From Acidimicrobiia bacterium (GTDB lineage Bacteria > Actinomycetota > Acidimicrobiia > Spongiisociales > ZC4RG35): DNA of 64,000 bases. Made by a program: the position numbers and the translations under genes. Of the stretch, positions 28,459-46,107 are shown piece after piece. The first letter of the stretch is position 1. Every line of letters begins with the position of its first letter. The stretch is taken from the NCBI GenBank assembly GCA_026002975.1, contig BPGJ01000003.1, positions 80,552 to 144,551 of the forward strand, given 5' to 3'. The notes beneath the pieces are model-generated. The model made no database searches, was not told where the DNA came from, and saw nothing but the letters and a program-made list of their open reading frames with translations.

Positions 28459-28540
28459 CCGGCTGGGGGGGTGCTCACCGCTCCCCCCAGTCGTAGGTCT
28501 GCTTGACCAGCCGGAGATAGCCGTAAATCTCGGAGGACAC
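28459..28540. repeat. copy 1 of 3 of the lrp 3'-end + GC hairpin repeat (diverged)
   Basis: Minus-strand reading gives ..VSSEIYGYLRLVKQTYDWGER*, against the native Lrp end VSSEVFSYLRLVKQTYDWGAR*. Contains the G7/C6 hairpin directly after the potD stop. Confidence 0.85.
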
Positions 28541-28606
28541 CGCGTTCTTGGCCTCGGCTGAAGATATGGCACACACGCCTGTCGAGACTTGAGGCGGTTT
28601 CGGGCG

Positions 28607-29677
28607 TCAGGGAACCCGTAGTACCCGGACTGGATCGCGGAAGGCAGCCACTACTGCGGGTGGGAGGGCGGCCGCCACTGCGGTGAGGACGGCGAGGACA
28701 GCGATAGCCAGACCGAAGCGTGGCTCGGGAGGCAACCCGGTTATCCGGTAGAGGGCCAGCCAGGCGCCTGTTGACCCGATTCCGGCCCCGAGTGTGGCGG
28801 AGAGACTGGTTTGGAGGCACACCAGGGTGACGATGGCGGGTCGGGATGCTCCCAGGGCGCGGCGGCGGCCGAAGTCGCGTCGTCTTCCGCTCACCGCCCC
28901 GTAGACGTTCAACCCGGTGAGAACCAGCCCGGCGGCCAGGACCGCGGTGATCAGGTTGCGTCCGAACCGTCCCAGTTCGCCCTGCACGGCCGCTCTCACC
29001 TGCGCCAACGCCTCCGAGGTCTCTATGGCTACGGCGGTGGGATCGGCGGGAGCGAGGACCATGAGGGCGGCGTCGGCGACTTTTCCCACCAGGGAGGGGC
29101 GCTCCACCAGGATGTGGATCGACCGCAGCTGGGTGGCCGGGGCGGTGAGGAGGCTCCGGTTGAGGAAGGCGAGGGGGTCGTCGGCGGTGAAAGAGCCCAC
29201 GATGGCGACATCGCCCTGGTTGGTCACCCCTCCGCCGAAGGGCAACTCGAGTCCCAGGGTTTGGGCGGCTTCGGGTCCGACCAGGGCCCGGCCTGGTCCC
29301 ATGGCGGCGCCGTCGGTGTGGATTTGGGGAGGAAGGTCCCCGTAGATGGCCCGCATCGCAGCCGGGTCGCCTCCCGGGTTTCCCGCCGGGCGTACGTCGG
29401 TGGTCGGTCCCAGACCGATCACCCATTCCACCCCGGCGATCCTGGTGATCCGGTCCACGGCTTCGGTGGTGAGGCCGGCGGCTCCGTTGGTGTCGGAGAT
29501 GACAATCGACCTGGTGCCCGCCTCGTCGATCCTGGCCAACACCTGTTGTTCCGCCTGTACGGTCTGACCGGTGGTGGAGAGGATGACGGCACACACCCCG
29601 GCGACGATGAGAGCGGTCACCGCTGAGCTCACCGGCTGGGCCACCGCCGAACGCAGCGCCTCCAACACCAGCTTCAC
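28607..29677 (-). CDS. FtsX/MacB-type ABC permease, copy 1
   Basis: GTG start at 29677 overlaps the ATPase stop (GTGA). N-terminal TM, ~200-aa extracytoplasmic domain, then 3 C-terminal TM helices. The ORF-track N-terminal extension is Arg/Pro-rich junk. Confidence 0.8.
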   Translation of the reverse strand: MKLVLEALRSAVAQPVSSAVTALIVAGVCAVILSTTGQTVQAEQQVLARIDEAGTRSIVISDTNGAAGLTTEAVDRITRIAGVEWVIGLGPTTDVRPAGNPGGDPAAMRAIYGDLPPQIHTDGAAMGPGRALVGPEAAQTLGLELPFGGGVTNQGDVAIVGSFTADDPLAFLNRSLLTAPATQLRSIHILVERPSLVGKVADAALMVLAPADPTAVAIETSEALAQVRAAVQGELGRFGRNLITAVLAAGLVLTGLNVYGAVSGRRRDFGRRRALGASRPAIVTLVCLQTSLSATLGAGIGSTGAWLALYRITGLPPEPRFGLAIAVLAVLTAVAAALPPAVVAAFRDPVRVLRVP

Positions 29678-30306
29678 AGTTCTAGCACCTCGTCGCAGAC
29701 CCCGACGATGTCGGGGTCGTGGGTGGCGATGATCACTGTCCGTTGCTCGCCGGCCAGTTCGGCGAGGGTGTCCACTACGAGCTGGGAGGTGCGGACGTCC
29801 AGGTTTCCTGTGGGCTCGTCGGCGAGGATCAGGTCGGGTCGGGCCAGCAGGGCACGGCATAGGGCGATCCGCTGTGCCTGACCACCCGACACCTCCCCCG
29901 GCTTGTGGTCGGCACGCAAAGCAACCTCGAATCTCTCCATCAGCTTTCGAGCCCGCCGCACCGCCTCACCTCGTGGGATGTCGTTGTAGAGGTGGGATTC
30001 GACGATGTTGTCGAGGACGGTGCGGGTGGGGTCCAGGGCAGCGTCCTGGAACACGAACCCCACCCTGGTCGCCCGGAAGCGAGACTTTCGCCCATCCGAA
30101 AGCCTGCCCAGGTCGACATCACCAGCCCGCACCGCTCCCGACCAGGGTGTGAGCAGCAGCCCGATCAGGTAGAGGAGGGTCGACTTGCCCCTCCCCGACG
30201 GGCCGGTGACCGCCGTCATCGCCCCCGGGGTGAAACGCCAGGTGAGGTCGGAGATGATGGGTTCGTCGCGCCGGTATCCGAACCAGACCGAGTCGAGGGT
30301 GATCAT
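29674..30306 (-). CDS. ABC transporter ATP-binding protein (MacB/LolD-like), copy 1
   Basis: 210 aa. Walker A GPSGRGKSTLL, signature VSGGQAQRIALCRAL and Walker B ILADEPTGNLD. Confidence 0.9.
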   Translation of the reverse strand: MITLDSVWFGYRRDEPIISDLTWRFTPGAMTAVTGPSGRGKSTLLYLIGLLLTPWSGAVRAGDVDLGRLSDGRKSRFRATRVGFVFQDAALDPTRTVLDNIVESHLYNDIPRGEAVRRARKLMERFEVALRADHKPGEVSGGQAQRIALCRALLARPDLILADEPTGNLDVRTSQLVVDTLAELAGEQRTVIIATHDPDIVGVCDEVLEL

Positions 30307-31352
30307 CGCTGGGGAAGCAGGATCACCGTGCCCGGCTCGATTCCATCCACCACTGCGATCCCCTGGGCCGACTCTACGATCTCCACCGGCACCTGGGTGC
30401 CGTCAGGACGGGTCACGAAGGGGTGGTTGGCCGGGTCGGTGCCGATCGCAGCCACCGGAACCACCGGGCCGGTGGTGTCGGGGACGACTATCACATCGGC
30501 GCGGAAGCTGGTCCGTCCCTGGAGATCCACCCACCGGGCACAGTCGTCACCACACACCGACCCCCCATCAGCCCCGACCAGGAACAGGTCGAGCTGACCC
30601 GTCTGCGGGCTTTCCACAGCCCGGTCGATAAGAGCATCCCACACACCCCCGGAGTAGTGGACTCGAACCTGGCCAGTCAACGGAACCAGGGCGGCCTGTT
30701 CCACGGCGAGGGGAATCCGGAAAACCGGGTCATCGGGAACGAGGAGGATCGCCGTCTCCCCTCCCCCAACCCTGGCGCCCACACTGAGATCTTCCGCCAC
30801 GGCGATCCGCGCCGGGAGAGCCGGCACGAAGACGAGATCCCCCGCCTCCACCACCCCCGTATCCTCCACTCCCAGGGCTCTCTGCCACACCCGCACCGCG
30901 GTCCGGGTGGCGGTGCCGTACCAGCCATCGGCATCACCCGAGTACAAGCCGAGGTAGGCGAGCAGCCGCTGCAGCTGAGCCACGTCAGCCCCCCGATCCC
31001 GCAGCCGCAAAGACCGGAACATCGGAACCTCACCCTCGGCGACCACCACGGGACGGAGATTCACCGTATACACAACTTCGCCAGGTCCGACCACGTCCCC
31101 GGGCGCGACCTCCACCGAAGTGACCACCCCGGCGGCCGAGTTGAGCCCGGCCGGGACCAGAGACCACTCCGCCACGGCGGTGAAACTAAACGACCGGCCT
31201 ACCGTCCCCACCTCCACGACATATGTGAGAGGGGTCGAATCTTCGGCAAGCGGGTTGGCGGGAGGCTCCAAAGCCACCCGCCCCGCCCAATAGCCGGCTG
31301 CTCCCGTGGCGACGAGCAGAAGGGCCAAGCCGGCGATGCGCAAGAGCCTCAT
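30303..31352 (-). CDS. membrane-fusion/HlyD-like adaptor with peptidoglycan-binding domain, copy 1
   Basis: ATG 31352 overlaps the regulator stop (ATGA). N-terminal TM. PG_binding_1-like GADVAQLQRLLAYLGLYSGDADGWYGTATRTAVRVWQ inserted in a beta-rich adaptor-like protein. Confidence 0.7.
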   Translation of the reverse strand: MRLLRIAGLALLLVATGAAGYWAGRVALEPPANPLAEDSTPLTYVVEVGTVGRSFSFTAVAEWSLVPAGLNSAAGVVTSVEVAPGDVVGPGEVVYTVNLRPVVVAEGEVPMFRSLRLRDRGADVAQLQRLLAYLGLYSGDADGWYGTATRTAVRVWQRALGVEDTGVVEAGDLVFVPALPARIAVAEDLSVGARVGGGETAILLVPDDPVFRIPLAVEQAALVPLTGQVRVHYSGGVWDALIDRAVESPQTGQLDLFLVGADGGSVCGDDCARWVDLQGRTSFRADVIVVPDTTGPVVPVAAIGTDPANHPFVTRPDGTQVPVEIVESAQGIAVVDGIEPGTVILLPQR

Positions 31353-31831: not shown

Positions 31832-31874
31832 ATCGCCCACTCCTGCCCCCTTTCCTCGGCGATCGCACGTGATT

Positions 31875-32123
31875 CTATGGGGGGGGGTCGGTTGAAGATG
31901 CCTCGGCCAGCTCGGCCTCCTGATCCGAGTTCGAGCCCGGTCGCAGCCCAGCGTCCCGCTCGACCCGACGCAACCAGCCCCGCAGTGTCTCAGATGCACA
32001 CCCGAACTTCGCGGCGATCGAACAGATCGCCGACCACTCCGAGGGGTACTCCTCTCGATGCTCGACCACCCGGCGAACCGCACGCTCAAGGACCTCCAGC
32101 GGATACCTGATTGTCTTTGCCAT
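31875..32123 (-). pseudogene. IS3-family OrfA (HTH) fragment
   Basis: MAKTIRYPLEVLERAVRRVVEHREEYPSEWSAICSIAAKFGCASETLRGWLRRVERD is typical of IS3/IS911 OrfA. No OrfB follows, and the ORF runs into the G-tract. Confidence 0.6.
31879..31887. repeat. homopolymeric G9 tract (C9 on the operon strand)
   Basis: Read directly: gattctat-ggggggggg-tcggttgaagatg. The equivalent tract in copy 2 is G11. Confidence 0.95.
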
Positions 32124-32170
32124 AGCTCCATCCTCCCAAGGATCAGAGCCTCCGGGAAACCGGGGCGGGT

Positions 32171-32575
32171 TCAGAGGTATCGCTGCCGGGTGGCTGGGTC
32201 GATGCGTTTCAGGGTGTAGGCCCACCAGTTGAAGGTGTCTCTGAGACGGGTGTTGCAGGCTCGACGCATCCGCACCCGGGCGGTCTTGCCTGAAGAGCAG
32301 GCCACCGGTGCTAGGCCGGCTTCGGCGAGGAGAGCGGCCGGGGTGGGGAACCGGTTTCGGTCTTCTCCGATTCAGGTGAGAAGGTTGGCGGCGATCACTG
32401 GGCCGGCTCCTGGGAAGCTGGTGAACAGCTCAGCGTCGGGATGGCGGGCAAACACGGTGGCGATCCGCTCGTCGAATCCTTTGAGTTGTTTGTTGAGCAG
32501 TTCGAGCTGGCCAGCCAGAGCGAGTGCTCCGCAGCTACGCCCGTTGGGCTGGTTCGGATGACGGCTGGTGACCAT
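32171..32575 (-). pseudogene. IS110-family transposase C-terminal fragment with an in-frame stop
   Basis: LFTSFPGAGPVIAANLLT*IGEDRNRFPTPAALLAEAGLAPVACSSGKTARVRMRRACNTRLRDTFNWWAY matches the IS110 C-terminal domain. The N-terminal catalytic part is missing. Confidence 0.6.
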
Positions 32576-32683: not shown

Positions 32684-32703
32684 GTGTGTGTGTGTGTGTG
32701 TGT
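32684..32703. repeat. (GT)10 dinucleotide microsatellite
   Basis: Read directly: gcg-gtgtgtgtgtgtgtgtgtgt-cagg. Confidence 0.95.
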
Positions 32704-33144: not shown

Positions 33145-34515
33145 ATGATTGCAGGTGATCAACCGCAAGCGAAGAGCGAGCATCGGTCCATCATTGCCTG
33201 GTTGATAGCCGGCTTCGTCTTGGGCTTCGCCAGCCTCGGTGTGCTGCTGCAGGGCGGATTCGCCGGCGCCGCGCCCTCTCCAGACCCGACACAATGGGAT
33301 CCGGACGTACACCCGCCATTGTATATCGTACATGAAGCTCGGTCAGTCACGGACGCCGGGAGCATCGTCGACGTGCAAGTTCATGTCGCTTGTGACTTCG
33401 CAGCCCTGCGAACTTCGGAGTGTTCACCCGATGTGACGTTGTGGGCGTCGTGGGGCGGAAGCCCGTATGTCGAAGTGCCGCTAGCTGAGACACGTGTGGA
33501 CTCACTGCAAGTGTGGACCGCCCACTTGCCAGCCAGGCACCCACAATTGGGTTCTCTCAGGTACTACTTCGAAGCGTCGCACCGCGCTTTAGGCGAGCCA
33601 GTCCGCTCCCCTATCTCCGGGGTCTATGAACCTGCAGTGTTCGATTCGTTCGTTGCGGTACCACTCGATGCCCCCACATTCGTGGAACCGGAGATTGTCT
33701 TGGAAGCCCCATGGGGAACCGGTCCAACCGAGATCGGGCTGGAAGATGGCTCTGAACAAGCAACAGTTGGGCCCGACGCCTTCGCTTACGCGGAGGACGG
33801 TACCCTGGCGCTGCTCGACCAGGTGAATGGTCGTGTCGTTACGGTTAGCCCGGAAGGAGTATGGACGACGTTTGACGCGCCGTTAAAGGGCGTAGGGGAC
33901 GTCGCGTTCAGCGGATCAAGCATACTAGTGCTTGACCTAGTCGGGGAGACCCAAGGACTTTCTCGTGTCCGGATCCCGCAGATCCTGAAGTACGACAGAG
34001 AAGGTTCGCTATTGGCGAAAGCTCCAGTGTTTGCAATGGAGCCCCGCAGGTTGCTCGCATCAGGTGCCGTAGTCGACGAATCGTCGAACTCACTGGTCTA
34101 CCCATTCGACGGCACCGCTGCCCGATCCCGATCTGAGCAGCGAGCAACGAGAAAGCCACACTCGTTCCGCGTTCAGGTCGTGTCCGACCAAGTAGCGTGG
34201 CTGGCAGATCTCGGCACTGACACTGCCTTCGAAGTCGATGCGACAACTGGTGAGCTCGGCGCAATTCCGGAGTTCACGCGTCTAGGCGATTCGTATCTCG
34301 TGGTTTTCGACCAGCCAAACACTTTTCGCATTGTCTGGTTCGACTCGAACGGCACTGTCGAGCGAGATGTGACGGTCGCCAACGAACGACATTCCGTATT
34401 CCTCCCGAAGGGGAGAGTCGCCGTGACTTCGAGGGGTGACGTTCTCATCTTGAACTCCGACGAGGATGGGATATCCATTATGCGTGTCCCAGGACCGAGG
34501 GGAGGTAAGTCATGA
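33145..34515 (+). CDS. membrane-anchored extracytoplasmic protein, unknown function (cargo A1)
   Basis: GAAGGAG RBS 5 nt before the ATG. N-terminal TM (IIAWLIAGFVLGFASLGVLL). The C-terminal half has repeated beta-strand-like segments and shares a GP..A...DG....LD....RV motif with cargo A5. Confidence 0.65.
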   Translation: MIAGDQPQAKSEHRSIIAWLIAGFVLGFASLGVLLQGGFAGAAPSPDPTQWDPDVHPPLYIVHEARSVTDAGSIVDVQVHVACDFAALRTSECSPDVTLWASWGGSPYVEVPLAETRVDSLQVWTAHLPARHPQLGSLRYYFEASHRALGEPVRSPISGVYEPAVFDSFVAVPLDAPTFVEPEIVLEAPWGTGPTEIGLEDGSEQATVGPDAFAYAEDGTLALLDQVNGRVVTVSPEGVWTTFDAPLKGVGDVAFSGSSILVLDLVGETQGLSRVRIPQILKYDREGSLLAKAPVFAMEPRRLLASGAVVDESSNSLVYPFDGTAARSRSEQRATRKPHSFRVQVVSDQVAWLADLGTDTAFEVDATTGELGAIPEFTRLGDSYLVVFDQPNTFRIVWFDSNGTVERDVTVANERHSVFLPKGRVAVTSRGDVLILNSDEDGISIMRVPGPRGGKS

Positions 34516-35129
34516 AATCTCGGGTCGCGATCTTGACCGGCGGAGTGCTACTGGGGATGGGAGTCGCCCTCTTGGTCTCGAAACCAGTGGAAGCTGGGTA
34601 CTCCATCACATGTTGGACCCGTAGTAACGCCGTCAGTTACTCGTACACTGCTCTGCACGAAGGATACGAGTGGGGAGGCGGGTGGTGGACCGACAACAAC
34701 TACGACGACACGCCGAGCTGCCCTACAGATGGCGGGTCTGGCTGTGAAGGTCCTGATTGCTCCGGGCTCGTATTCAAATCCTGGGCGATGGTGAACTCGT
34801 GGGGCAGCACTGGCAAGTACTACTGGTATGCCGGTGACAACGTACACGGGCCATACTCATCGACCTCTTTCCGAGACGGCTGTGGCGGGGCTTGCTACGA
34901 CGTTTGCACCCGGCCCTGCGGGTCAGGTTCATATTCACTCACGATCCCGATGGATGCATTCGCAAAGAGTGGTCACATTGGCCTAATCTGGTCGGAAGGG
35001 TCCGACGGTTACGACGATATCCTTGAGGCGCACTCGAATAACGCTGGCGTTATTCTTTCCGAACGCTCGTACCGGCTCTCCAGCTCTTATGACGGAGTAC
35101 GTAGAAAGAACTGGAGCACTAGCTGTTGA
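34512..35129 (+). CDS. secreted NlpC/P60-like cysteine peptidase with Cys-rich N-terminal extension (cargo A2)
   Basis: ATGA overlap with A1. Signal peptide ending VEA. Catalytic-type motifs GPDCSGLVFKSW, SGHIGLIW and LEAHS in the NlpC/P60 Cys...His...His order. Confidence 0.6.
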   Translation: MKSRVAILTGGVLLGMGVALLVSKPVEAGYSITCWTRSNAVSYSYTALHEGYEWGGGWWTDNNYDDTPSCPTDGGSGCEGPDCSGLVFKSWAMVNSWGSTGKYYWYAGDNVHGPYSSTSFRDGCGGACYDVCTRPCGSGSYSLTIPMDAFAKSGHIGLIWSEGSDGYDDILEAHSNNAGVILSERSYRLSSSYDGVRRKNWSTSC

Positions 35130-35188: not shown

Positions 35189-35587
35189 GTGACCGCCAAG
35201 GATGGAGGTACTAAGATGCGACGAGAGATCGACAGGACGGGTGGATTATTCACGAAAGACGTTGCACAGAACAGGCTCCGGCAACGACTTGTCGCCGGGC
35301 TTATCCTCGTATTCTTAGTGGTACTTGCTTTCGCGCCAGCTGCTTTCGCCTACGGATACCGATCGGGCTCCTCGAGCTGCCCGTACGGTAAACAGGTGAG
35401 AATCGTGTCCCGGACAACGATGAACTACAAGCACTACTGGGAGTCGGGCCTTGCCGAAGACTGGTTTGGGGATAGCAGTCCCCACTGGGCCTACACGAAG
35501 ACGTGGGAGCAGAGCACCGATTGGACCGTGACCACAGACGGTGCCCTGTACAATGCATACACCGACTGCGTCTATATGCCTGTGTGA
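35189..35587 (+). CDS. small secreted protein (cargo A3); alternative start at 35216
   Basis: TM/signal (LVAGLILVFLVVLAFAPAAFA), then a ~85-aa mature part with 2 Cys ending WTVTTDGALYNAYTDCVYMPV. Its 3' 113 bp recur at 44411..44523. Confidence 0.55.
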   Translation: MTAKDGGTKMRREIDRTGGLFTKDVAQNRLRQRLVAGLILVFLVVLAFAPAAFAYGYRSGSSSCPYGKQVRIVSRTTMNYKHYWESGLAEDWFGDSSPHWAYTKTWEQSTDWTVTTDGALYNAYTDCVYMPV

Positions 35588-36300
35588 GAGCCGTTGTGCG
35601 ACACCCCTCGATGCTGATAGCGGCTGCTCTCTTGATGCTGATCTCTGCGTGTGCAGGCGAGACGGAGACGTCTACTACCGCTCCAGGGTCTTCGACCCTT
35701 TCTACCCTGGTTGGAGCCACTGAGAGCCCCTCGAAGTCGCCGGCTGCCGGCCTGTCGGCGGGCCAGGAGGAGCCGTCCGATACGGCGGGGGAGGGGGAGC
35801 CGTCCGATACGGGTGGCCTTCAGGGTGGTGGGCCATCCCAGCCGCCGCGGGTGGGTCGTAACTGGACTCCGGACCAGATCAAGCGATTCCTCAAGGCATG
35901 TGTCGAGGCTGAGGGCTTCACTGTGTCTTTGTCCGACACCGGCGCACTGGAGTGGCGCGGACCGGCGGAACAGCGTGAGGCAGCCAGCGCAGCCTTCGCC
36001 CGATGTCGAGAGCAGCTGCCTGTTTCTGTGCGCACCTATCACCCACCAACGGAGGAGGAGATCCGCGGTTGGTACGACGTCTTCCTCGAGGTGGCAGCGT
36101 GTCTTGAACGGGAAGGCTACGAGGTTCCGCCGCCACCGTCGATCGACTCGTTCGTCGAGTCGCAGGGATCCAACTGGCATCCTTATGACCTGGTGGTGGC
36201 GGATCCGACCCTGCCGTGGGGGGAGTGGGTGCGGCTGAACGAAGTGTGCCCCCAGGGCGGGGTCGAGGGCACTTCCACCGGAGACGATCATGCGGACTGA
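35584..36300 (+). CDS. lipoprotein, unknown function (cargo A4), paralogue of 44752..45474
   Basis: GTG overlaps the A3 stop (GTGA); alternative starts at 35596 and 35611. Lipobox LMLISAC, low-complexity linker, and a C-terminal Cys-containing domain (ACLEREGYEVPPPPSIDSFVE). Confidence 0.6.
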   Translation: MRAVVRHPSMLIAAALLMLISACAGETETSTTAPGSSTLSTLVGATESPSKSPAAGLSAGQEEPSDTAGEGEPSDTGGLQGGGPSQPPRVGRNWTPDQIKRFLKACVEAEGFTVSLSDTGALEWRGPAEQREAASAAFARCREQLPVSVRTYHPPTEEEIRGWYDVFLEVAACLEREGYEVPPPPSIDSFVESQGSNWHPYDLVVADPTLPWGEWVRLNEVCPQGGVEGTSTGDDHAD

Positions 36301-37490: not shown

Positions 37491-37650
37491 AACCTGAGGA
37501 GCCCCAACGCCGACCCGGAGGGGCAACGCCTCCCGGCATGGGGTGGTGGTAGGTAGGCGTCCCGTGAAGTGGTGGAAATGGGGGTGGGGGTCCTTGGACA
37601 TGTGGGGCCACCGTGTGACTCTCAGCGAGTTCAAGCAACGAGCTCGAGAC

Positions 37651-38010
37651 ATATGAGTCGGTCGACACCTCCGGCGCGTCCTGGGAAGGCATCCAGATGC
37701 GGTGCCCACAGTCGCCGGCAGGCGGCTACGGCGCCTGGGATCCAGGCGACCCGATCCGCCCCCTCAACTCGCCACGAGAGCAGTGACGGCGAAGACGATC
37801 GGGGTTGTCTCTTCTCCAACAGGTTCGGGACGAAAGGCCAATCGGTGCGCATTGCGTCCCGTTCCCGTCGACCACCGTGGACGACGGGATCTACGCCAAC
37901 ACCCTGCTCCACGGTGGTCATGTGCCCCGGCCGGCTGGGGGGCGCTCACCGCGCCCCCCAGTCGTAGGTCTGTTTGACCAGCCGGAGATAGCTGAAACCT
38001 CGGAGGAGAC
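37651..38010. repeat. ~360-bp direct repeat of 45339..45699 (lipoprotein 3' end, spacer, hairpin, lrp 3' end; copy 2 of the lrp repeat is 37931..38010)
   Basis: Same sequence apart from about 2 substitutions and a 1-nt deletion (gttttc to gtttc). Encodes YESVDTSGASWEGIQMRCPQSPAGGYGAWDPGDPIRPLN(S/P)PREQ*. Confidence 0.9.
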
Positions 38011-38160
38011 CCGATTCGGTCGACCACCACCTGATGTCATGGTCGATCCCGCCGATCCACCCAGTGCAGTGCGGATTCTGAGCCGACCCGTATGCCATGG
38101 GCTTTTTCCTTGTGCTCGTATGACACGCACACCTGTCGGGACTTTGGGCGGTTTCGGGCC

Positions 38161-39231
38161 TCAGGGAACTCGTAGTACCCGGACCGGGTCGCGGAAGGCG
38201 GCCACTACGGCGGGTGGGAGGGCAGCCGCTACTGCGGTGAGGACGGCGAGGACAGCGATAGCCAGACCGAAGCGTGGCTCGGGGGGTAACCCGGTTATCC
38301 GGTAGAGGGCCAGCCAGGCGCCTGTTGACCCGATTCCGGCTCCGAGTATGGCGGAGAGACTGGTTTGGAGGCACACCAGGGTGATGATGGCGGGTCGGGA
38401 TGCTCCCAGGGCGCGGCGGCGGCCGAAGTCGCGTCGTCTTCCGCTCACCGCCCCGTAGACGTTCAACCCGGTGAGAACCAGCCCGGCGGCCAGGACCGCG
38501 GTGATCAGGTTGCGTCCGAACCGTCCCAGTTCGCCCTGCACGGCCGCTCTCACCTGCGCCAACGCCTCCGAGGTCTCTATGGCTACGGCGGTGGGATCGG
38601 CGGGAGCGAGGACCATGAGGGCGGCGTCGGCGACTTTTCCCACCAGGGAGGGGCGCTCCACCAGGATGTGGATCGACCGCAGCTGGGTGGCCGGGGCGGT
38701 GAGGAGGCTCCGGTTGAGGAAGGCGAGGGGGTCGTCGGCGGTGAAGGAGCCCACGATGGCGACATCGCCCTGGTTGGTCACCCCTCCGCCGAAGGGCAAC
38801 TCGAGTCCCAGGGTTTGGGCGGCTTCGGGTCCGACCAGGGCCCGGCCTGGTCCCATGGCGGCGCCGTTGGTGTGGATTTGGGGAGGAAGGTCCCCGTATA
38901 TAGGCCGCATCGCAGCCGGGTCGCCTCCCGGGTTTCCCGCCGGGCGTACGTCGGTGGCCGGTCCCAGACCGATCACCCATTCCACCCCGGCGATCCTGGC
39001 GATGCGGTCCACGGCTTCGGTGGTGAGGCCGGCGGCTCCGTTGGTGTCGGAGATGACAATCGACCTGGTGCCCGCCTCGTCGATCCTGGCCAACACCTGT
39101 CGTTCCGCCTGGACGGTCTGACCGGTGGTGGAGAGGATGACCGCGCACACCCCGGCGACGATGAGAGCTGTCACCGCCGAACTCACCGGCTGGGCCACCG
39201 CCGAACGCAGTGCCTCCAACACCAGCTTCAC
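38161..39231 (-). CDS. FtsX/MacB-type ABC permease, copy 2
   Basis: Same architecture as copy 1, with 7 amino-acid differences by my comparison. Confidence 0.8.
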   Translation of the reverse strand: MKLVLEALRSAVAQPVSSAVTALIVAGVCAVILSTTGQTVQAERQVLARIDEAGTRSIVISDTNGAAGLTTEAVDRIARIAGVEWVIGLGPATDVRPAGNPGGDPAAMRPIYGDLPPQIHTNGAAMGPGRALVGPEAAQTLGLELPFGGGVTNQGDVAIVGSFTADDPLAFLNRSLLTAPATQLRSIHILVERPSLVGKVADAALMVLAPADPTAVAIETSEALAQVRAAVQGELGRFGRNLITAVLAAGLVLTGLNVYGAVSGRRRDFGRRRALGASRPAIITLVCLQTSLSAILGAGIGSTGAWLALYRITGLPPEPRFGLAIAVLAVLTAVAAALPPAVVAAFRDPVRVLRVP

Positions 39232-39860
39232 AGTTCCAGCACCTCGTCGCAGACCCCGACGATGTCGGGGTCGTGGGTGGCGATGATCACTGTCCGTTGC
39301 TCGCCGGCCAGTTCGGCGAGGGTGTCCACTACGAGCTGGGAGGTGCGGACGTCCAGGTTTCCTGTGGGCTCGTCGGCGAGGATCAGATCGGGTCGGGCCA
39401 GCAGGGCACGGCATAGGGCGATCCGCTGTGCCTGACCACCCGACACCTCCCCCGGCTTGTGGTCGGCACGCAAAGCAACTTCGAATCTCTCCATCAGCTC
39501 TCGAGCCCGCCGCACCGCCTCACCTCGTGGGATGTCGTTGTAGAGGTGGGATTCGACGATGTTGTCGAGGACGGTGCGGGTGGGGTCCAGGGCAGCGTCC
39601 TGGAACACGAACCCCACCCTGGTCGCCCGGAAGCGAGACTTTCGCCCATCCGAGAGCCCACCCAGGTCGACATCACCAGCCCGCACCGCTCCCGACCACG
39701 GTGTGAGCAGCAGCCCGATCAGGTAGAGGAGGGTCGACTTGCCCCTCCCCGACGGGCCGGTGACCGCCGTCATCGCCCCCGGGGTGAAACGCCAGGTGAG
39801 GTCGGAGATGATGGGTTCGTCGCGCCGGTATCCGAACCAGACCGAGTCGAGGGTGATCAT
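39228..39860 (-). CDS. ABC transporter ATP-binding protein, copy 2
   Basis: 210 aa, with 2 amino-acid differences from copy 1 (R/G and K/E). Confidence 0.9.
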   Translation of the reverse strand: MITLDSVWFGYRRDEPIISDLTWRFTPGAMTAVTGPSGRGKSTLLYLIGLLLTPWSGAVRAGDVDLGGLSDGRKSRFRATRVGFVFQDAALDPTRTVLDNIVESHLYNDIPRGEAVRRARELMERFEVALRADHKPGEVSGGQAQRIALCRALLARPDLILADEPTGNLDVRTSQLVVDTLAELAGEQRTVIIATHDPDIVGVCDEVLEL

Positions 39861-40906
39861 CGCTGCGGAAGCAGGATCACCGTGCCCGGCTCGATTCCAT
39901 CCACCACTGCGATCCCCTGGGCCGACTCTACGATCTCCACCGGCACCTGGGTGCCGTCAGGACGGGTCACGAAGGGGTGGTTGGCCGGGTCGGTGCCGAT
40001 CGCAGCCACCGGAACCACCGGGCCGGTGGTGTCGGGGACGACTATCACATCGGCGCGGAAGCTGGTCCGTCCCTGGAGATCCACCCACCGGGCACAGTCG
40101 TCACCACACACCGATCCCCCATCAGCCCCGACCAGGAACAGGTCGAGCTGACCCGTCTGCGGGCTTTCCACAGCCCGGTCGATAAGAGCATCCCACACAC
40201 CCCCGGAGTAGTGGACTCGAACCTGACCCGTCAGCGGAACCAGGGCGGCCTGTTCCACGGCGAGGGGAATCCGGAAAACCGGGTCATCGGGAACGAGGAG
40301 GATCGCCGTCTCCCCTCCCCCAACCCTGGCGCCCACACTGAGATCTTCCGCCACGGCGATCCGCGCCGGGAGAGCCGGCACGAAGACGAGATCCCCCGCC
40401 TCCACCACCCCCGTATCCTCCACTCCCAGGGCTCTCTGCCACACCCGCACCGCGGTCCGGGTGGCGGTGCCGTACCAGCCATCGGCATCACCGGAGTACA
40501 AGCCGAGGTAGGCGAGCAGCCGCTGCAGCTGAGCCACGTCAGCCCCCCGATCCCGCAGCCGCAAAGACCGGAACATCGGGACCTCACCCTCGGCGACCAC
40601 CACGGGACGGAGATTCACCGTATAGACGGCTTCGCCAGGTCCGACCACGTCCCCGGGCGCGACCTCCACCGAAGTGACCACCCCGGCGGCCGAGTTGAGC
40701 CCGGCCGGGACCAGAGACCATTCCGCCACGGCGGTGAAACTAAACGACCGGCCTACCGTCCCCACCTCCACGACATATGTGAGAGGGGTCGAATCTTCGA
40801 CAAGGGGGTTGGCGGGAGGTTCCAAAGCCACCCGCCCCGCCCAATAGCCGGCTGCTCCCGTGGCGACGAGCAGAAGGGCCAAGCCGGCGATGCGCAAGAG
40901 CCTCAT
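39857..40906 (-). CDS. PG-binding membrane-fusion adaptor, copy 2
   Basis: 2 amino-acid differences from copy 1 (A/V and V/A). Confidence 0.7.
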   Translation of the reverse strand: MRLLRIAGLALLLVATGAAGYWAGRVALEPPANPLVEDSTPLTYVVEVGTVGRSFSFTAVAEWSLVPAGLNSAAGVVTSVEVAPGDVVGPGEAVYTVNLRPVVVAEGEVPMFRSLRLRDRGADVAQLQRLLAYLGLYSGDADGWYGTATRTAVRVWQRALGVEDTGVVEAGDLVFVPALPARIAVAEDLSVGARVGGGETAILLVPDDPVFRIPLAVEQAALVPLTGQVRVHYSGGVWDALIDRAVESPQTGQLDLFLVGADGGSVCGDDCARWVDLQGRTSFRADVIVVPDTTGPVVPVAAIGTDPANHPFVTRPDGTQVPVEIVESAQGIAVVDGIEPGTVILLPQR

Positions 40907-41385
40907 AGCTCCGACAGCTTCGGGAACAGCGGGGCCAGCCGAGTCCAGCGGCACTCATGCGTCAGGTGTGCGGCTTCCTTGAGCTCGGCGAGGCGGCGCC
41001 GGATCTGTCTTCCCGAGTAGCCGATGAGCTCCGAAGCCTCCTCTGGGCTCACCCCATTGGCGGCCAGAGCCACAATCCTCCATTCGAGCTCGCGTGCCCC
41101 GAGGTCGCTGGGACGGAACAGTGAGTACACCCGACTTCCAGAAGCAATGCTCACCAAGTGGCCCACTCCGATCTCCTCTGCCCGCAAGATACCCGCCACG
41201 TCCAAGTCACAGAGGGCCTTGAGAACTGCGGGCAGCCCAGAGGGAATGAACGCCACCGGATCGGATGCCATTGCAGCCACCTCGACCCTGTCGGTCACCA
41301 CAACGTCGGACTCTGCCGGAATGTTGGTGGGCAGCCTGGAGGCGAGGGCGGCGGCCAGCTCGGGGTTGCGGACGCTGATGATCAC
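40903..41385 (-). CDS. HTH regulator (LuxR/GerE-like), copy 2
   Basis: GTG at 41385 equals 31831 + 9554. N-terminus is VIISV, against VIINV in copy 1. Confidence 0.55.
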   Translation of the reverse strand: MIISVRNPELAAALASRLPTNIPAESDVVVTDRVEVAAMASDPVAFIPSGLPAVLKALCDLDVAGILRAEEIGVGHLVSIASGSRVYSLFRPSDLGARELEWRIVALAANGVSPEEASELIGYSGRQIRRRLAELKEAAHLTHECRWTRLAPLFPKLSEL

Positions 41386-41431
41386 ACCGCCCACTCCGGC
41401 CCCCTTTCCTCGGCGATCGCACGTGATTTTA

Positions 41432-42813
41432 GGAGACTGCGCGCTGACGTGGGGAGGCGCCTGCCGGTGACAATGCCTGGAAGGTGACCGAAGCCCCTCG
41501 ATACTCGGTGATGAGAAGTCGCCGAGTGAAGGAGGGGCTCCGATGAGTCCGGATGCTATGACGGTACGCCTGCATCTCCGCAGGATTCGTGTGGTGGATG
41601 TGACGGTGGATCTGCCCGAGCGCCTGGAGGTGGTGGTGGAAGACACCCGCCGGGTGGTGCGGTGCCCTCACTGTGGATTCAGGACCACCAGGGTGCATGA
41701 CCGGCGCCGCGTCCGGGTCCGGGATGTGACCTTTGGGGGAAGACCGACGGTGCTGATCTGGCTGCGTCGACGGCTCACCTGTGAGGACTGCTCGGGGCGG
41801 TTCTTGGAGGAGCATCCCGAGTTCGTTCTCGGACGGGTCAGCCACGTGACCCGCCGCCTGGCCCGCACCCTGGTCCGAGATGTCAACCGGCTTCCCATCC
41901 GGGAGCTGTCCCGCCGTTGGGGTCTCGGCTGGCATTTCATCATGGGGCTGGTGGCCTCCTGGTCGGAGTTGGTGGTGGCGGAGCGGCGTCGCCGCCGCTG
42001 CCGGGTCCTCATGGTCGACGAGACCAGCCTGCGTCGTCGCCACCGGTATGTGACGGTGCTGATCAACGGGGAGACCGGGGAGGGCCTGGGGGTGGTCAGA
42101 CACCGAAACAGCCAGGCGTTGTCGGGGTTCTTCGCCTCCCAGGGCCACCGCTGGTGTCGGGGAGTGCGGGTGGTGGTGACCGACGGCTCGGAGGCCTACC
42201 GGGCGGCGATCCGATCCCACTTGGGTCACGCCACTCATGTGGTCGACCGGTTTCATGTGGCTCGCTGGTTCGCCTCCGCCCTCATCGAGGTGCGGCGTAG
42301 GATCCAGCGGATCGGGCCCCACGGTTCTCGGCCTGCCTACGACCCAGACGTGTTCCGATCCCGCTACTTGCAGCTGAGACGAGAGGACCGCCCTCGACGA
42401 GGAAGCGAGGAACCGCCTCGAACCCGTCCTTGCCGCCCACCCCGAGCTGGCTCACGCCTGGACCCTCTACCAGCACCTCCACCGCATCTACCTAGCCGAG
42501 GAAGATGAGCAGGCCAACCAGGCTCTGGGAGACTTCATCGCCGGCTACCGAGACCGCTCCCTCCCCGAGTTCGACCAGGTCATCGGCGCCCTCCTCGACT
42601 GGGGAGACGAGATCTTCGCCTTCCACGACACCGACCGGGCTACCAACGGCCGTCTCGAGGGCACCAACGCCAAGCTGGGTGTGCTCAAGAGGATCGCCTA
42701 CGGGTTCGTCTCCGCCACCAACTTCGGCCACCGAGCCCTCCTCCTCACCCCAGGAGTGGCAACATGAGCAAGCCGAGTGACGAGGGACCCATCCCATGTC
42801 ACCGCGCGGAACC
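41432..42813 (+). mobile_element. ISL3-family insertion sequence (~1.38 kb) with imperfect terminal IRs and a 7-bp target duplication
   Basis: Left end GGAGACTGCGCGCTGACGTGGGGAGG; the reverse complement of the right end is GGTTCCGCGCGGTGACATGGGATGGG. Flanked by gatttta at 41425-41431 and 42814-42820. Copy 1 has the uninterrupted site. Confidence 0.8.
41543..42767 (+). pseudogene. ISL3-family transposase with one frameshift near 42385
   Basis: Zn-ribbon N-terminus (CPHCGFRTTRVHDRR...LTCEDC) and the DDE region (MVDETSLRRRHRYVTVL, VVTDGSEAY) lie in ORF 41543..42508. The C-terminus LDEEARNRLEPVLAAHPEL...TNGRLEGTNAKLGVLKRIAYGF is in the next frame. Confidence 0.8.
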
Positions 42814-42831: not shown

Positions 42832-42993
42832 TCGGTTGAAGATGTCGAGAAGTGGACATCGCTGCTGGGTATGTTGACGCGGGAAGGCTAAAGGGGGTGA
42901 TACAGCCGAGGGTTTGATGGAGGAGACGATCCGGCGGCGTCGGTACCGGCGAGAACTCGATCCCGACGCCACCAGACCAGGAGGTAAGAGTAG

Positions 42994-43866
42994 ATGTGGA
43001 GAGGGAGAACATGGGGGCTCGTCTCCTGGGTGACGGCGCTCTCGATGTTGGTTCCGGGAATTGCGGGAGCAGCCAGCGAATCGGAAGTCGTTCTGGCAGA
43101 GAATCCGGACGTACGGGTCATTCAGAAGGGCGACTGGGTGATCTGGGATTTCACCGAGGAGCTACCGAACCCCGAGACTGTGACTGTCAAGGGGAGCCTG
43201 CTTCCGTCCGGTGAGTGCTACTACGCAAGGTCTGTGACCTCAGACGGGTCAACGATCCCCGGGTATTTCCGGATCTACCGCGAGGTGGCACACAATGCGT
43301 CGGACTGCATTCTCAGACTCGAGGCAGCAAATCTGCCACTCCGAAGACTCGGCGAGTTCGACGGTTCGGAACCTGACAGCGTCTCGGTTTCTGAGAGCTT
43401 CCTAGTGAACTCGCCCATCGAAGCAAGCATGACTGGCGGTGGCGAGCAGTTCGCCGCGACGTCAACAACGTCCACTGCCTGGTTCAAGTCCGTATATGAG
43501 GATCCGATTGAGATCGACGTCAACAGCGTCAAGGTGAATCTCCAGTGGACGTGGAATGGGTCCTGTGTGACTTCGAGCACGAACCACTCGGCAGTGTGGT
43601 ACTGGTTCGAGGGCACAGGCTGGTTCCTGAAGTCGAAGTCGGGAAGCGGCGGCCGGACTTGCTCGTCTGCCTACACGAAGGCGACTGGTGAGTTTTGGAA
43701 TTGGACCTGGGGAGACGACTCCCTCTTGACTTGGACGAAGCACACAGACACGAAGATCAGCGGGCTCGCAAACGGGTCGATCACGGTCTCTTGGAACCTG
43801 ACAAAGGGTGGCGAGGACAGCGGGTTGTTGCACACCGACTTCGTATGCTCTTGGACATCGTGTTGA
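42994..43866 (+). CDS. secreted Trp/Cys-containing protein, unknown function (cargo B1)
   Basis: AGGAGG lies 9 nt before the ATG. Signal peptide (LVSWVTALSMLVPGIAGAAS). Beta-rich, Trp-rich C-terminal half (VNLQWTWNGSC...WYWFEGTGWF...FWNWTWG). No family recognised. Confidence 0.6.
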   Translation: MWRGRTWGLVSWVTALSMLVPGIAGAASESEVVLAENPDVRVIQKGDWVIWDFTEELPNPETVTVKGSLLPSGECYYARSVTSDGSTIPGYFRIYREVAHNASDCILRLEAANLPLRRLGEFDGSEPDSVSVSESFLVNSPIEASMTGGGEQFAATSTTSTAWFKSVYEDPIEIDVNSVKVNLQWTWNGSCVTSSTNHSAVWYWFEGTGWFLKSKSGSGGRTCSSAYTKATGEFWNWTWGDDSLLTWTKHTDTKISGLANGSITVSWNLTKGGEDSGLLHTDFVCSWTSC

Positions 43867-43891
43867 AGGCCAGATAGAGGAGGGTGTGACC

Positions 43892-44353
43892 GTGGATCGC
43901 GAGTTGGGACTTGCCCTTGCCGCCACCGGCGTCGTCGTCGTATTGGCCGAGATCGGGGGACTTGGGACACGATTCCCCAAGTGGATTCAGACGATTGTCA
44001 GGCTCCTCAGCTTTGGAGTCGGTCTGATCCTCTTTGTAGTCGGGGTCTTCGCGGTCGTTGCTGAAACCTTCTCGGGTCCGACTACCGAACCATCGCGGCT
44101 TGTCTGGGCCGTTCCCGTGGTGGTGACGGTTGCTGGAGGTTTGCTCGTGTGGGGATCGGAACGATGGGAGGGTCAACAGGCAGCTTGGCTGCGAAGGAGC
44201 GGCTGGGTTGTGTCGATTGCAGGCGTTTCCCTGACCGCGCTGTCGGATCTCTATCTCCTGGTAGCAATCGTGATGGCTCCAAGCCTGCTGACCTTTTCGT
44301 CGCCTGGTGAAGTGGAATCAGCGGGCCGTCGTGGAAGGGTTACAGCCTCTTAA
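43892..44353 (+). CDS. 4-TM small membrane protein (cargo B2)
   Basis: GTG lies 7 nt after GAGGAGGG. 153 aa with four hydrophobic helices. The ORF-track N-terminal extension overlaps B1. Confidence 0.5.
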   Translation: MDRELGLALAATGVVVVLAEIGGLGTRFPKWIQTIVRLLSFGVGLILFVVGVFAVVAETFSGPTTEPSRLVWAVPVVVTVAGGLLVWGSERWEGQQAAWLRRSGWVVSIAGVSLTALSDLYLLVAIVMAPSLLTFSSPGEVESAGRRGRVTAS

Positions 44354-44410
44354 GGACTTATCGAGACATCGCGAATCCGTGGGGTGGAGCCTTTGACCTG
44401 GAGTCTTGAA

Positions 44411-44681
44411 GGGCCTACACGAAAACGTGGGAGCAGAGCACCGATTGGACCGTGACCACCAACGGTGCGCTGTACAATGCATCCACCGACTGCGTCTATA
44501 TGCCTGTGTGAGAGCCGTTGTGCACGACGCGCCCACCAGCACCTGGCTCGCCAGCTATCCCAATGGCAGCGAGTGGAAGACCCGCACTACCACGACGAAT
44601 CTGACTAGCACGTCGTGGCGGGTAACAACGGATGGCGCATTGAGCGACTCCGGGACCTACGCGTTCTGTTGGGGGACATGA
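44411..44681 (+). pseudogene. remnants of two small-secreted-protein modules (A3 family)
   Basis: 44411..44523 is ~95% identical to the 3' end of A3 but lacks the 5' half. It is followed in the overlapping frame by VRAVVHDAPTSTW...TSTSWRVTTDGALSDSGTYAFCWGT*, a diverged second copy without a signal peptide. Confidence 0.5.
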
Positions 44682-44751
44682 CTGCCCATTCGGCGGGCTG
44701 CGGTGTCGCCAGGCTCAAGCCAGGCGACACCGCGCGTCGTCTCGCTCGACG

Positions 44752-45474
44752 GTGATGCTTTTCGGGTGGACTGTGATGGGGGTCATCGTGATGGTTCTGG
44801 CAGCCGCGTGCACACAGCCGAGCGCCGATCGCAACGTCACCACTCTCGGGAGCAGCCTCCTCGAAGGCAACACCGATGAATCGCGAACGACGACCACCGC
44901 CACGGCTCAGGCATCTTCCACCTCGCAACCCGAGCAGTCAGCTCCGGATTCGAGAACCGAAGGCGTTGCTCCCATCACCGGGTACGGGGACTTCTCGGAC
45001 CGGCCAGCGTTCGAGGTGGACTGGTATCGGGTGTCGGAGCTGGTGGTGGAGCGCATGAACGACCAGGGATTCCCTGCCGCGCTGATCCCCCCGGGGGATG
45101 GGATCTCGGTGGCCGAGATCCCCCCCGAGCAGCGAAGCGCTGCAGAGGAGGTGTTCGACGCCTGCTACGCCGGGTTGAACCTGCCTCCGCAGCAGCCCCT
45201 CGACGACGAGCAGATCGCCGAGGTCTACGCCTACCGGCTGGCGGTGGCGGACTGCCTGCGGGCTGAGGGCTACCAGGTGCCGCCGGCGCCGTCGCTGGAC
45301 ACCTTCATCGAGGAGTGGGCCACCGGACCCTGGAACCCATATGAGTCGGTCGACACCTCCGGCGCGTCCTGGGAAGGCATCCAGATGCGGTGCCCACAGT
45401 CGCCGGCAGGCGGCTACGGCGCCTGGGATCCAGGCGACCCGATCCGCCCCCTCAACCCGCCACGAGAGCAGTGA
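44752..45474 (+). CDS. lipoprotein, unknown function (cargo B3), paralogue of cargo A4
   Basis: Lipobox VLAAAC and a Ser/Thr-rich linker. The C-terminal domain aligns by eye with A4 (DCLRAEGYQVPPAPSLDTFIEEWATGPWNPYE against ACLEREGYEVPPPPSIDSFVESQGSNWHPYD). Confidence 0.6.
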   Translation: MMLFGWTVMGVIVMVLAAACTQPSADRNVTTLGSSLLEGNTDESRTTTTATAQASSTSQPEQSAPDSRTEGVAPITGYGDFSDRPAFEVDWYRVSELVVERMNDQGFPAALIPPGDGISVAEIPPEQRSAAEEVFDACYAGLNLPPQQPLDDEQIAEVYAYRLAVADCLRAEGYQVPPAPSLDTFIEEWATGPWNPYESVDTSGASWEGIQMRCPQSPAGGYGAWDPGDPIRPLNPPREQ

Positions 45475-45622
45475 CGGCGAAGACGATCGGGGTTGTCTCT
45501 TCTCCAACAGGTTCGGGACGAAAGGCCAATCGGTGCGCATTGCGTCCCGTTCCCGTCGACCACCGTGGACGACGGGATCTACGCCAACACCCTGCTCCAC
45601 GGTGGTCATGTGCCCCGGCCGG

Positions 45623-45649
45623 CTGGGGGGCGCTCACCGCGCCCCCCAG
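45623..45649. terminator. GC-rich hairpin shared by convergent cargo B3 and lrp (overlaps the lrp stop codon)
   Basis: ctggggggcgc-tcacc-gcgccccccag: an 11-bp perfect stem and 5-nt loop. It is also present in the two upstream repeat copies. Confidence 0.6.
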
Positions 45650-46107
45650 TCGTAGGTCTGTTTGACCAGCCGGAGGTAGCTGAAAACCTCGGAGGAGACC
45701 ACTCCGTCGACGGTGCGGATCTGGTTCAGGACATCGAGGAAATGCTCGGTCGACTCGCAGACGATCTCGGCGAGGAGGTCGAACCGGCCGGTGGTGATCA
45801 CCAGGTAATCGACCTCTTCGATGGCCGAGAGCTTGGAGGAGACCTGCTCGAGGTCGCCTTCGATACGCAGACCCACCATTGCCTGGATGTCGAAACCGAG
45901 CGATATCGGGTCGGTCACCGCCACGATCTGCATCACCCCGTCTCTGACCAGGCGCAGGACGCGTTGCCGGACCGCTGCCGGTGACAGTCCCACCGTGGAA
46001 GCCAGCTCCGCATACGACATCCGGCCATCCTCCTGGAGGAGGCGGATGAGCGCCTTGTCGACCTCGTCGAGCCGGGGTCGGGGAACGGTCCGGGATGGGG
46101 CCCGCAT
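45634..46107 (-). CDS. Lrp/AsnC family transcriptional regulator
   Basis: I chose the start MRAPSRTVPRPRLDEVDKALIRLLQEDGRMSYAELA. HTH plus a RAM-like C-terminal domain. Divergent from gabT. Confidence 0.85.
   Translation of the reverse strand: MRAPSRTVPRPRLDEVDKALIRLLQEDGRMSYAELASTVGLSPAAVRQRVLRLVRDGVMQIVAVTDPISLGFDIQAMVGLRIEGDLEQVSSKLSAIEEVDYLVITTGRFDLLAEIVCESTEHFLDVLNQIRTVDGVVSSEVFSYLRLVKQTYDWGAR

Follow-up and report, generated by a model that had tools for sequence, protein, structure and literature searches.

A 64,000-nucleotide stretch of an Acidimicrobiia bacterium (GenBank assembly GCA_026002975.1, contig BPGJ01000003.1, positions 80,552 to 144,551), hereafter the window, carries between potD and lrp an island of two tandem units, A and B, each combining an operon for an ATP-binding cassette (ABC) pump with a set of genes for secreted or membrane proteins (Table 1). 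potD (stop 28452) encodes a PotD-type solute-binding protein (SBP_bac_8, E 1e-31) and lrp an Lrp/AsnC regulator, domain matches that bear out the flanks proposed in an earlier, sequence-only reading of the window. Self-comparison of 24-50 kb by BLASTN returned a single long direct repeat, 28565-31874 = 38119-41428 (98.1% identity over 3,310 bp), at the same 9,554-bp offset and about the same identity (~98%) as given in that reading, together with two shorter repeats, 37650-38011 = 45338-45700 (363 bp, 99.2%) and 35487-35599 = 44411-44523 (113 bp, 95.6%). The long repeat consists of four minus-strand genes, encoding a protein with a weak helix-turn-helix (HTH) match, a membrane-fusion adaptor, an ABC ATPase, and an FtsX permease, in the order already proposed and indeed chained by 4-bp start/stop overlaps (29674-29677, 30303-30306, and 31349-31352 in the open reading frame (ORF) coordinates of unit A). 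Most of the 62 differences that separate the module copies are synonymous (ratio of nonsynonymous to synonymous differences, pN/pS, 0.08-0.18); both copies have thus diverged as functional genes under selection, and the differences are not sequencing noise. In both units, identity ends ~45 bp upstream of the start of the weak-HTH gene.

The plus-strand cargo genes have a GC content of 0.54-0.60 at 33.0-35.5 kb and 0.58-0.59 at 43.0-44.5 kb, versus 0.65-0.70 around them, and hydropathy analysis shows signal peptides, lipoboxes, and transmembrane (TM) segments in their products; the sequence-only reading had noted both traits, and had correctly described unit B as encoding a Trp-rich secreted protein (B1), a 4-TM protein (B2), and a lipoprotein (B4). 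The cargo does face away from the operon in each unit, as that reading held, but the two are not tightly divergent, as 1.3-1.6 kb of insertion sequence (IS) remnants intervene. Similarly, the gene sets of the two units differ, but not in a simple manner: they are mosaic relatives that hold each other's remnants, namely A3-type 3' remnants in unit B and a 47-codon B4-type remnant in unit A. The former lack a signal peptide and are therefore regarded as a pseudogene. Searches of Pfam, NCBIfam, and the PDB assigned no family to A1, A2, A3, A4, B1, B2, or B4, the sole result being DUF7485 for A5.

Table 1. Features of the island between potD and lrp, in window coordinates (aa, amino acids; HMM, hidden Markov model; AF2, AlphaFold2; pLDDT, predicted local distance difference test).
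Feature	Position	Strand	Basis and remarks
lrp 3'-end copy 1, displaced	28458..28541	.	5 bp past potD stop; most diverged, 89-90% to other two
Unit A FtsX/MacB-type permease, 356 aa	28607..29677	-	Pfam FtsX E 2.4e-7, above gathering score
Unit A ABC ATPase, 210 aa	29674..30306	-	ABC_tran E 9e-28
Unit A membrane-fusion adaptor	30303..31352	-	Pfam PG_binding_1 E 1e-13; AF2 pLDDT 92
Unit A weak-HTH protein, 158 aa	31349..31825	-	C-terminal HTH_23 E 1.3e-3, below gathering score
IS debris of unit A: IS3 orfA-like fragment and IS110 fragment	31875..32575	-	HTH_28/HTH_Tnp_1 weak; Transposase_20 E 3e-11
A1, 456 aa, N-terminal TM anchor, no family	33145..34515	+	Overlaps A2 by 4 bp; hydropathy
A2, secreted, Cys-rich, NlpC/P60-like motifs	34512..35129	+	Signal peptide; no Pfam match
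A3, small, Sec-secreted, one Cys near each end of mature chain	35216..35587	+	A3-family HMM E 4e-17
A4, lipoprotein of A4/B4 family, lipobox	35611..36300	+	23 bp after A3; HMM E 1e-50
A5, lipoprotein, lipobox	36290..37387	+	Pfam DUF7485 E 2.6e-30
Remnant: last 47 codons of a B4-type lipoprotein gene	37650..37786	+	In 363-bp repeat; HMM E 5e-13
lrp 3'-end copy 2, boundary between units	37930..38022	.	Self-comparison
Unit B FtsX permease	38161..39231	-	98% identical to unit A; pN/pS 0.15
Unit B ABC ATPase	39228..39860	-	Repeat copy; pN/pS 0.12
Unit B membrane-fusion adaptor with PG_binding_1	39857..40906	-	Repeat copy; pN/pS 0.08
Unit B weak-HTH protein	40903..41379	-	Repeat copy
ISL3 transposase of unit B, two reading frames	41543..42764	+	DDE_Tnp_ISL3 profile 1-126, then 125-239 in another frame
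B1, 290 aa, secreted, 5.9% Trp, no family	42994..43866	+	Signal peptide (hydropathy)
B2, 4-TM membrane protein, start uncertain	43808..44353	+	Hydropathy; weak NrsF match E 5e-4
Two fused 3' remnants of A3-family genes	44397..44681	+	113 bp 95.6% to 35487-35599; family HMM E 1e-28
B4, lipoprotein of A4/B4 family, lipobox	44752..45474	+	HMM; homology to A4
lrp 3'-end copy 3, end of intact lrp with hairpin downstream of stop	45618..45700	.	Self-comparison
lrp, intact Lrp/AsnC regulator	45634..46197	-	Pfam HTH_AsnC and AsnC_trans_reg

The pump proteins are placed by profile matches and structural modeling. Hydropathy gives the permease TM segments at residues 11-38, 241-263, 282-300, and 318-347, with an external loop of ~200 residues between the first and second. 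The top NCBIfam matches of the ATPase (L_ocin_972_ABC, LolD, FtsE, DarD, DevA, and MacB; E 1e-38 to 1e-47) all score below their cutoffs and, as no equivalog cutoff is reached, the protein is placed in the MacB/LolD/FtsE clade without orthologue assignment. The AF2 model of the adaptor matches MexA, AcrA, BesA, CusB, ZneB, and MacA in Foldseek (E 2e-11 to 1e-7, probability 1.0), with the best template modeling scores (TM-scores) for the hairpin-less BesA; the model lacks the long alpha-hairpin with which tripartite pumps dock to an outer-membrane duct, and PG_binding_1 (residues ~117-170) fills the hairpin position. Together, these matches and the model place the pump among MacAB-like (type VII) ABC transporters; its permease is of the 4-TM FtsX type, its ATPase is a separate protein, and its third part is a membrane-fusion adaptor. 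The sequence-only calls of a peptidoglycan-binding membrane-fusion adaptor (Foldseek E ~1e-11 to MexA/AcrA/BesA/CusB/MacA), an ABC ATPase, and an FtsX/MacB permease (Pfam ABC_tran and FtsX) are thereby upheld. The conserved HTH regulator named alongside them has to be withdrawn, given the sub-threshold HTH_23 match and a single partial match of 36 residues, at the edge of one related locus (L052). The adaptor is identical to KatS3mg011_0707 and B4 to KatS3mg011_0725, both proteins of an Acidimicrobiia metagenome-assembled genome (MAG). Two other assignments were tried and rejected: phage or prophage origin, since PHROGs matches comprise the peptidoglycan-binding domain only and viral contigs hold only a peptidoglycan-binding fragment of the module, and anti-phage defence, for which PADLOC yields no more than generic ABC-ATPase similarity.

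Searches seeded with the adaptor yielded 25 non-redundant related loci (35-70% protein identity; L numbers below) from MAGs and metagenomes of Acidimicrobiia and other Actinomycetota, including Arachnia and Propionicimonas. The order adaptor-ATPase-permease is kept in every related locus with enough sequence, and the only recurrent neighbour of the pump is the lipoprotein family of A4 and B4, present in 21 of the 25 loci (21 of the 23 with usable flank). Homologues of A1, A2, A5, B1, B2, and lrp are absent from the related loci; the five cargo genes among these are consequently strain-specific rather than regular partners of the pump. The sequence-only proposal of a conserved ABC machine with exchangeable secreted cargo thus survives in its conserved trio, its variable secreted neighbours, and the consistency across genomes of the lipoprotein association, but not in the cargo genes that it named as regular partners.

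The regular partner of the pump is a gene for an A3-type small secreted Cys...Cys protein followed by one for an A4/B4-family lipoprotein. Directly upstream of many of these lipoprotein genes, on the same strand, lies a small ORF of constant design: a signal peptide and a mature chain of 65-95 residues, rich in W, Y, H, and G, with a first Cys no more than ~10 residues from the cleavage site and a second 0-7 residues from the end. When a pattern detector for signal-peptide Cys...Cys ORFs was run on 2,992 ORFs in 252.7 kb, 38 fit, at least 24 of which lie immediately upstream of one of 55 lipoprotein genes (~3 expected by chance). A family defined by the motif SW[RK]VTTxGxL...TY[AG]xC includes A3 and the unit-B remnant; its HMM recovers 17 members with E down to 1e-30 and no match among 3,450 reversed-sequence controls. 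A3-family genes accompany a B4-like lipoprotein subfamily (median -log10 E 62.5 vs 17.4, Mann-Whitney p 2e-5), and these comparisons establish the anatomy of the locus, its synteny, and the association of small-protein types with lipoprotein types. A homologue search with A3 in 5.8e9 proteins returned A3 itself only, and neither Lactococcin_972 nor any other Pfam or NCBIfam model matched A3 or 16 other small proteins, even at E up to 10.

Members of the A4/B4 family share a lipobox, a Thr/Ser-rich linker, and a four-Cys domain of ~150 residues. The family numbers 3,271 cluster representatives at 50% clustering (E <= 1e-3, 1.84 billion clustered proteins), has no model in Pfam or NCBIfam, and shows no Pfam match indicative of domain fusion in its longer proteins. 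A4 and B4 are only 28% identical, while the pump proteins of the two units are 98-99% identical. The AF2 model of B4 has a confident core (pLDDT above 90); a weak resemblance to the ring-building motif of PrgK/EscJ (E > 2) was not used.

The number and arrangement of cassettes vary from locus to locus. Several small-protein/lipoprotein pairs accompany one pump in L049, L003, L007, and L013, and lipoprotein arrays of up to ~10 paralogs without small genes occur in L015 and L045. In L003, a 237-nt segment of the permease 3' end (7152-7388 / 9543-9779, 90%) and an 88-nt segment of the small-gene 5'/leader region (7483-7570 / 9872-9959, 91%) are each repeated at 2.39-kb spacing, and the mature small proteins and lipoproteins between the repeats differ, making two different cassettes; judged by these repeats, the locus looks like the product of cassette replacement by recombination in conserved anchors. 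A second, diverged adaptor/ABC pair lies 6.8 kb upstream in L051. Look-ups with B4 homologues supplied three contexts, two of which adjoin a pump. In one (L042-44), the pump stands in the same divergent layout as in the window and is flanked by toxin-antitoxin pairs, which suggests a mobile or variable region; the flanking pairs of L042 are PIN/FitA-like and PemK/RHH (979-1607 and 7244-7790). In the second (L045), the permease 3' end is followed by seven lipoprotein paralogs. In the third (L041), the B4-like domain forms the external part of an anti-sigma factor in an extracytoplasmic function (ECF) sigma/anti-sigma pair, an arrangement consistent with a binding or sensing role for the domain. 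The L041 contig, of 10 kb and without a pump, holds two such pairs (565-2090 and 5918-7368), and the first anti-sigma factor ends in the B4-like domain, its PITGYGDFS motif included. On the 612-kb contig of L015 (MFD09964.bin.1.235), at least 10 lipoprotein-family paralogs surround fragmented pump genes (1-14256), the breaks in which may be real decay or long-read indel errors. Lastly, the MOBF mobilizable plasmid pCL-A6099 of Clavibacter sp. A6099 (NZ_CP083440.1; L067) carries adaptor, ABC, FtsX, small Cys...Cys protein, and lipoprotein genes in that order, at ~15.4-19.6 kb of the record; three of these, for the adaptor, the small secreted protein, and the lipoprotein (10991-11868, 12833-13465 in L067), are missing from the plasmid's distributed gene table, and a signal peptidase I gene (lepB) lies ~1 kb downstream of the cassette.

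How the tandem array in the window arose is explained by the IS debris and by the lrp 3' end, which is present in three copies. The repeated element, of ~84 bp, comprises the last ~22 codons of lrp and a GC hairpin that includes the lrp stop codon. Breakpoints within lrp coincide to ~10 bp, so that recombination at a fixed anchor, whether site-specific or Campbell-type, is a better explanation than two separate duplications, and the closeness of copy 1 to the potD stop suggests that potD and lrp were once directly convergent, with the hairpin common to both. Direct repeats of the target-gene 3' end flank the insert while lrp itself stays intact, the arrangement expected of a site-specifically integrated genomic island, and the three copies record two insertions at the lrp 3' end, each of which brought a substitute end with it. 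The likeliest history is that one element is present here in two variant forms, which accumulated at the lrp anchor before IS activity wore them down. By this scheme, two variant units would have been added at the lrp 3' end by recombination, site-specific or Campbell-type, at a short lrp-derived anchor, and IS insertions and deletions would afterwards have scrambled both, unit A keeping an intact A3-A4 pair and its strain-specific secreted genes, and unit B losing the small-protein gene and retaining the lipoprotein. Neither a tRNA attachment site nor RNA elements were found in the island. The two frames of the ISL3 transposase overlap at ~42378-42508, as in a frameshift pseudogene or after a sequencing indel, and no clear terminal inverted repeats were found for that element (41543-42764). 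A (GT)n microsatellite of ~9 units (32686-32702) lies in the IS debris that separates A1 from the unit A operon.

The remaining cargo, A1-A2, A5, and B1-B2, may be further effector-type cargo or mere passengers. A2 contains the motifs DCSGLV ... GHIGLI ... LEAH, and to that extent the NlpC/P60-like hydrolase described in unit A stands, but no Pfam model matches it and its best PDB matches, RipA/RipB at E 0.15, are not significant. A weak similarity of ~100 residues between A1 and A5 (pairwise E 0.002) may reflect paralogous domains flanking A2-A3-A4. The NrsF match of B2, below cutoff, is to a membrane anti-sigma family, and B1 and B2 may form a separate effector/membrane-protein pair. Plasmid searches with B4, A5, A2, and B1 gave no match.

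The reading that we tentatively favour is that of a polymorphic antagonism locus, in which the small proteins would be effectors, the lipoproteins their cognate binders or immunity factors, and the MacAB-like pump the means of clearing or exporting the effectors; the toxin, immunity, and pump roles are inferred. A slowly evolving pump beside fast, co-varying pairs, several pairs per pump, lipoprotein-only arrays, and location on a plasmid or island form the pattern of effector/immunity cassettes, as does the truncated small gene beside an intact lipoprotein gene in unit B. The conserved core would be a five-part envelope system, consisting of the three-protein pump and one or more small-protein/lipoprotein cassettes. 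The small protein, exported by Sec and disulfide-bonded outside the membrane, would serve as a diffusible effector, most probably a toxin of the bacteriocin kind. The cognate lipoprotein would bind the small protein at the membrane surface and so protect the producer, and the wall-anchored pump, by MacB-type mechanotransmission, would remove the small protein from the membrane face and drive it across the wall zone. Cassettes would be swapped or stacked at short conserved anchors, the lrp 3' end here and the permease 3' end in L003. Among the roles put forward in the sequence-only reading (export/immunity, wall remodelling, or antagonism), antagonism/immunity is still the best fit, whereas the wall hydrolase A2 has dropped out as a regular partner. 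A bolder and more doubtful proposal is that such loci constitute a widespread, undescribed actinobacterial class, with disulfide-clamped Sec toxins, four-Cys lipoprotein immunity, a shared wall-anchored pump, anchor-recombined cassettes, and a domain that also serves as an anti-sigma sensor.

Several observations weigh against the antagonism reading. No component shows homology to a known bacteriocin or immunity protein in Pfam, NCBIfam, PDB sequence, or PHROGs searches, and Foldseek finds no significant PDB neighbour of the B4 model. A small partner was detected for only 24 of the 55 lipoprotein genes, and for small proteins that fall outside the A3 family the grouping relies on design and position, their identities being 12-24% with no demonstrable homology. 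Sec-secreted proteins need no ABC exporter, which leaves the role of the pump conjectural. ORF inspection and Pfam searches of the island ORFs revealed no integrase or recombinase, only IS3, IS110, and ISL3 fragments, and the source is a MAG, a circumstance that also favours an artefactual origin of the array (see below).

Unlikely, albeit the most durable of the alternatives, is a Lol-like trafficking system, the pump extracting or positioning lipoproteins and their small partners into the wall or a surface layer and the cassettes being structural or surface-variation cargo rather than weapons. Such a role agrees with a lipoprotein family as the consistent neighbour, often in arrays, with an adaptor anchored to peptidoglycan, and with an ATPase whose LolD score is only slightly below its score for the bacteriocin ABC group; LolCDE is itself a lipoprotein-handling MacB-type machine (PMC5985334). 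Nevertheless, LolCDE operates without a membrane-fusion adaptor, which is present here, the LolD equivalog cutoff is missed widely (157 vs 308 bits), and a plasmid- or island-borne location argues against a housekeeping role. One-to-one pairing, subfamily co-variation, and the truncated small gene are also explained less directly by trafficking than by toxin and immunity.

The co-variation of small-protein and lipoprotein types would be expected of a signal-receptor pair as well, in which the lipoprotein domain would be the receptor for the small protein as a diffusible signal and the output would pass through the pump or an ECF sigma pathway, in kin or quorum recognition; the lipoprotein domain of L041, the external part of an anti-sigma factor in an ECF sigma pair, speaks for this. 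It is nonetheless rather improbable, given that most copies are plain lipoproteins without a signalling domain, that a signalling pair would not be expected to form arrays of up to ~10 paralogs (L015, L045) or to leave a lipoprotein gene next to a truncated small gene, and that Pfam searches of the island ORFs revealed no kinase or sigma factor in the window island.

A different objection concerns the array only and not the system, namely that the assembler fused two strain variants of a single locus in head-to-tail order. The source project used PacBio HiFi reads with an N50 of 10.5 kb, assembled with metaFlye (PMC9671151), a read length above both the size of the repeat (3.3 kb) and its period (9.55 kb). 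In favour of an artefact, the 1.9% divergence of the module copies is what strain alleles would show, and an independent unitig from the same sample (L001) breaks at the repeat edges. Against it, a two-allele bubble offers no equivalent of the middle junction, which runs from the B4 remnant through an lrp fragment and 107 unique bp into permease B; the left lrp copy is a third and more diverged one, and related loci also show partial tandem accretion (L003) or two modules (L051). On the strength of the HiFi read length and the non-allelic middle junction, an assembly artefact is judged quite improbable.

FtsEX-like control of peptidoglycan hydrolases such as A2, for the purpose of wall remodelling, is very improbable: the NlpC/P60-like catalytic motifs of A2, the resemblance of the ATPase to FtsE (E 9e-45), the peptidoglycan-binding domain of the adaptor, and FtsEX-RipC, reportedly an actinobacterial precedent, are outweighed by the absence of A2 homologues from all of the related loci, which marks A2 as no regular partner of the pump, by the lack of any hydrolase gene in most of those loci, by the presence of a membrane-fusion adaptor, which FtsEX systems lack, by a missed FtsE cutoff (153 vs 265 bits), and by the non-significant similarity of A2 (E 0.15).

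If the antagonism reading is true, two 'dark' families, the lipoprotein domain and a set of fast-evolving small secreted families, would acquire names, and the common but unexplained actinobacterial operon of 'peptidoglycan-binding protein + ABC + FtsX' would acquire a job. It would also show the role of a membrane-fusion adaptor in a cell without an outer membrane, and a phylum noted chiefly for small-molecule antibiotics would gain a Sec-dependent protein-bacteriocin system. Through its copy on the Clavibacter plasmid the system is directly testable in a cultured organism and, even if the toxin reading is wrong, the strict synteny of small protein, lipoprotein, and pump is a solid comparative result.

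No description of this gene arrangement was found in the literature, and known systems resemble it in part. As in lactococcin 972 loci, which combine a bacteriocin of this kind with ABC/permease immunity, a Sec-dependent, unmodified, aromatic-rich small secreted protein adjoins an ABC system, and the best NCBIfam match of the ATPase is the ABC protein of the lactococcin-972 group (TIGR03608, 159 bits vs a cutoff of 254.85); however, lactococcin 972 has no cysteines (PMC8538875), and no lipoprotein or adaptor has been described for it. Lantibiotic immunity combines the LanI lipoprotein with LanFE(G) (PMC8538875), and the proposed combination of a toxin-binding surface lipoprotein with an expelling ABC transporter would be similar, although LanFEG is not of FtsX/MacB type and has no adaptor, whereas the permease here is FtsX-type. 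Pfam searches of the island ORFs found neither lanthipeptide genes nor a modification enzyme, and no similarity of A4/B4 to Pfam, NCBIfam, or PDB folds, including any LanI models or structures held there, was detected.

MacAB-TolC of E. coli exports the Sec-delivered, disulfide-bonded STII (PMC5985334), and the proposed pathway would likewise run from Sec export through disulfide formation to outward movement of a small folded protein by a MacB-type pump. It differs in that there is no outer membrane or TolC here, the adaptor ends in the wall, and each small protein has a cognate lipoprotein gene. In variable bacteriocin-immunity regions and the orphan immunity arrays of polymorphic toxin loci, such as pneumococcal blp, conserved transport genes stand beside strain-variable effector/immunity pairs. 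Immunity genes without a partner occur there, as do leftovers of displaced cassettes and recombination at conserved anchors, and the same pattern is proposed here; the components are unrelated, however, export here is by Sec, and the host belongs to the Actinomycetota.

The closest counterparts are B. subtilis YknWXYZ, directed against SDP, and E. faecalis AS-48EFGH, monoderm systems that likewise combine an adaptor with a 4-TM FtsX/MacB permease and an ATPase on a separate chain. YknXYZ and AS-48EFGH shield producers against their own peptides, and YknX binds peptidoglycan (PMC5985334). The target of both is an endogenous peptide toxin, Sec-dependent or secreted, which they engage on the outer side of the membrane, as is proposed for the pump described herein. 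They differ in that the adaptor here has a dedicated PG_binding_1 domain in place of a hairpin, in that the partners are a lipoprotein family and disulfide proteins of 65-95 residues dissimilar to SDP, AS-48, and YknW, and in that the cassettes are multiple and polymorphic. By analogy, the locus would work like these known Gram-positive MacAB-type producer-protection systems, while differing from them in its adaptor, its lipoprotein partner, and its type of effector.

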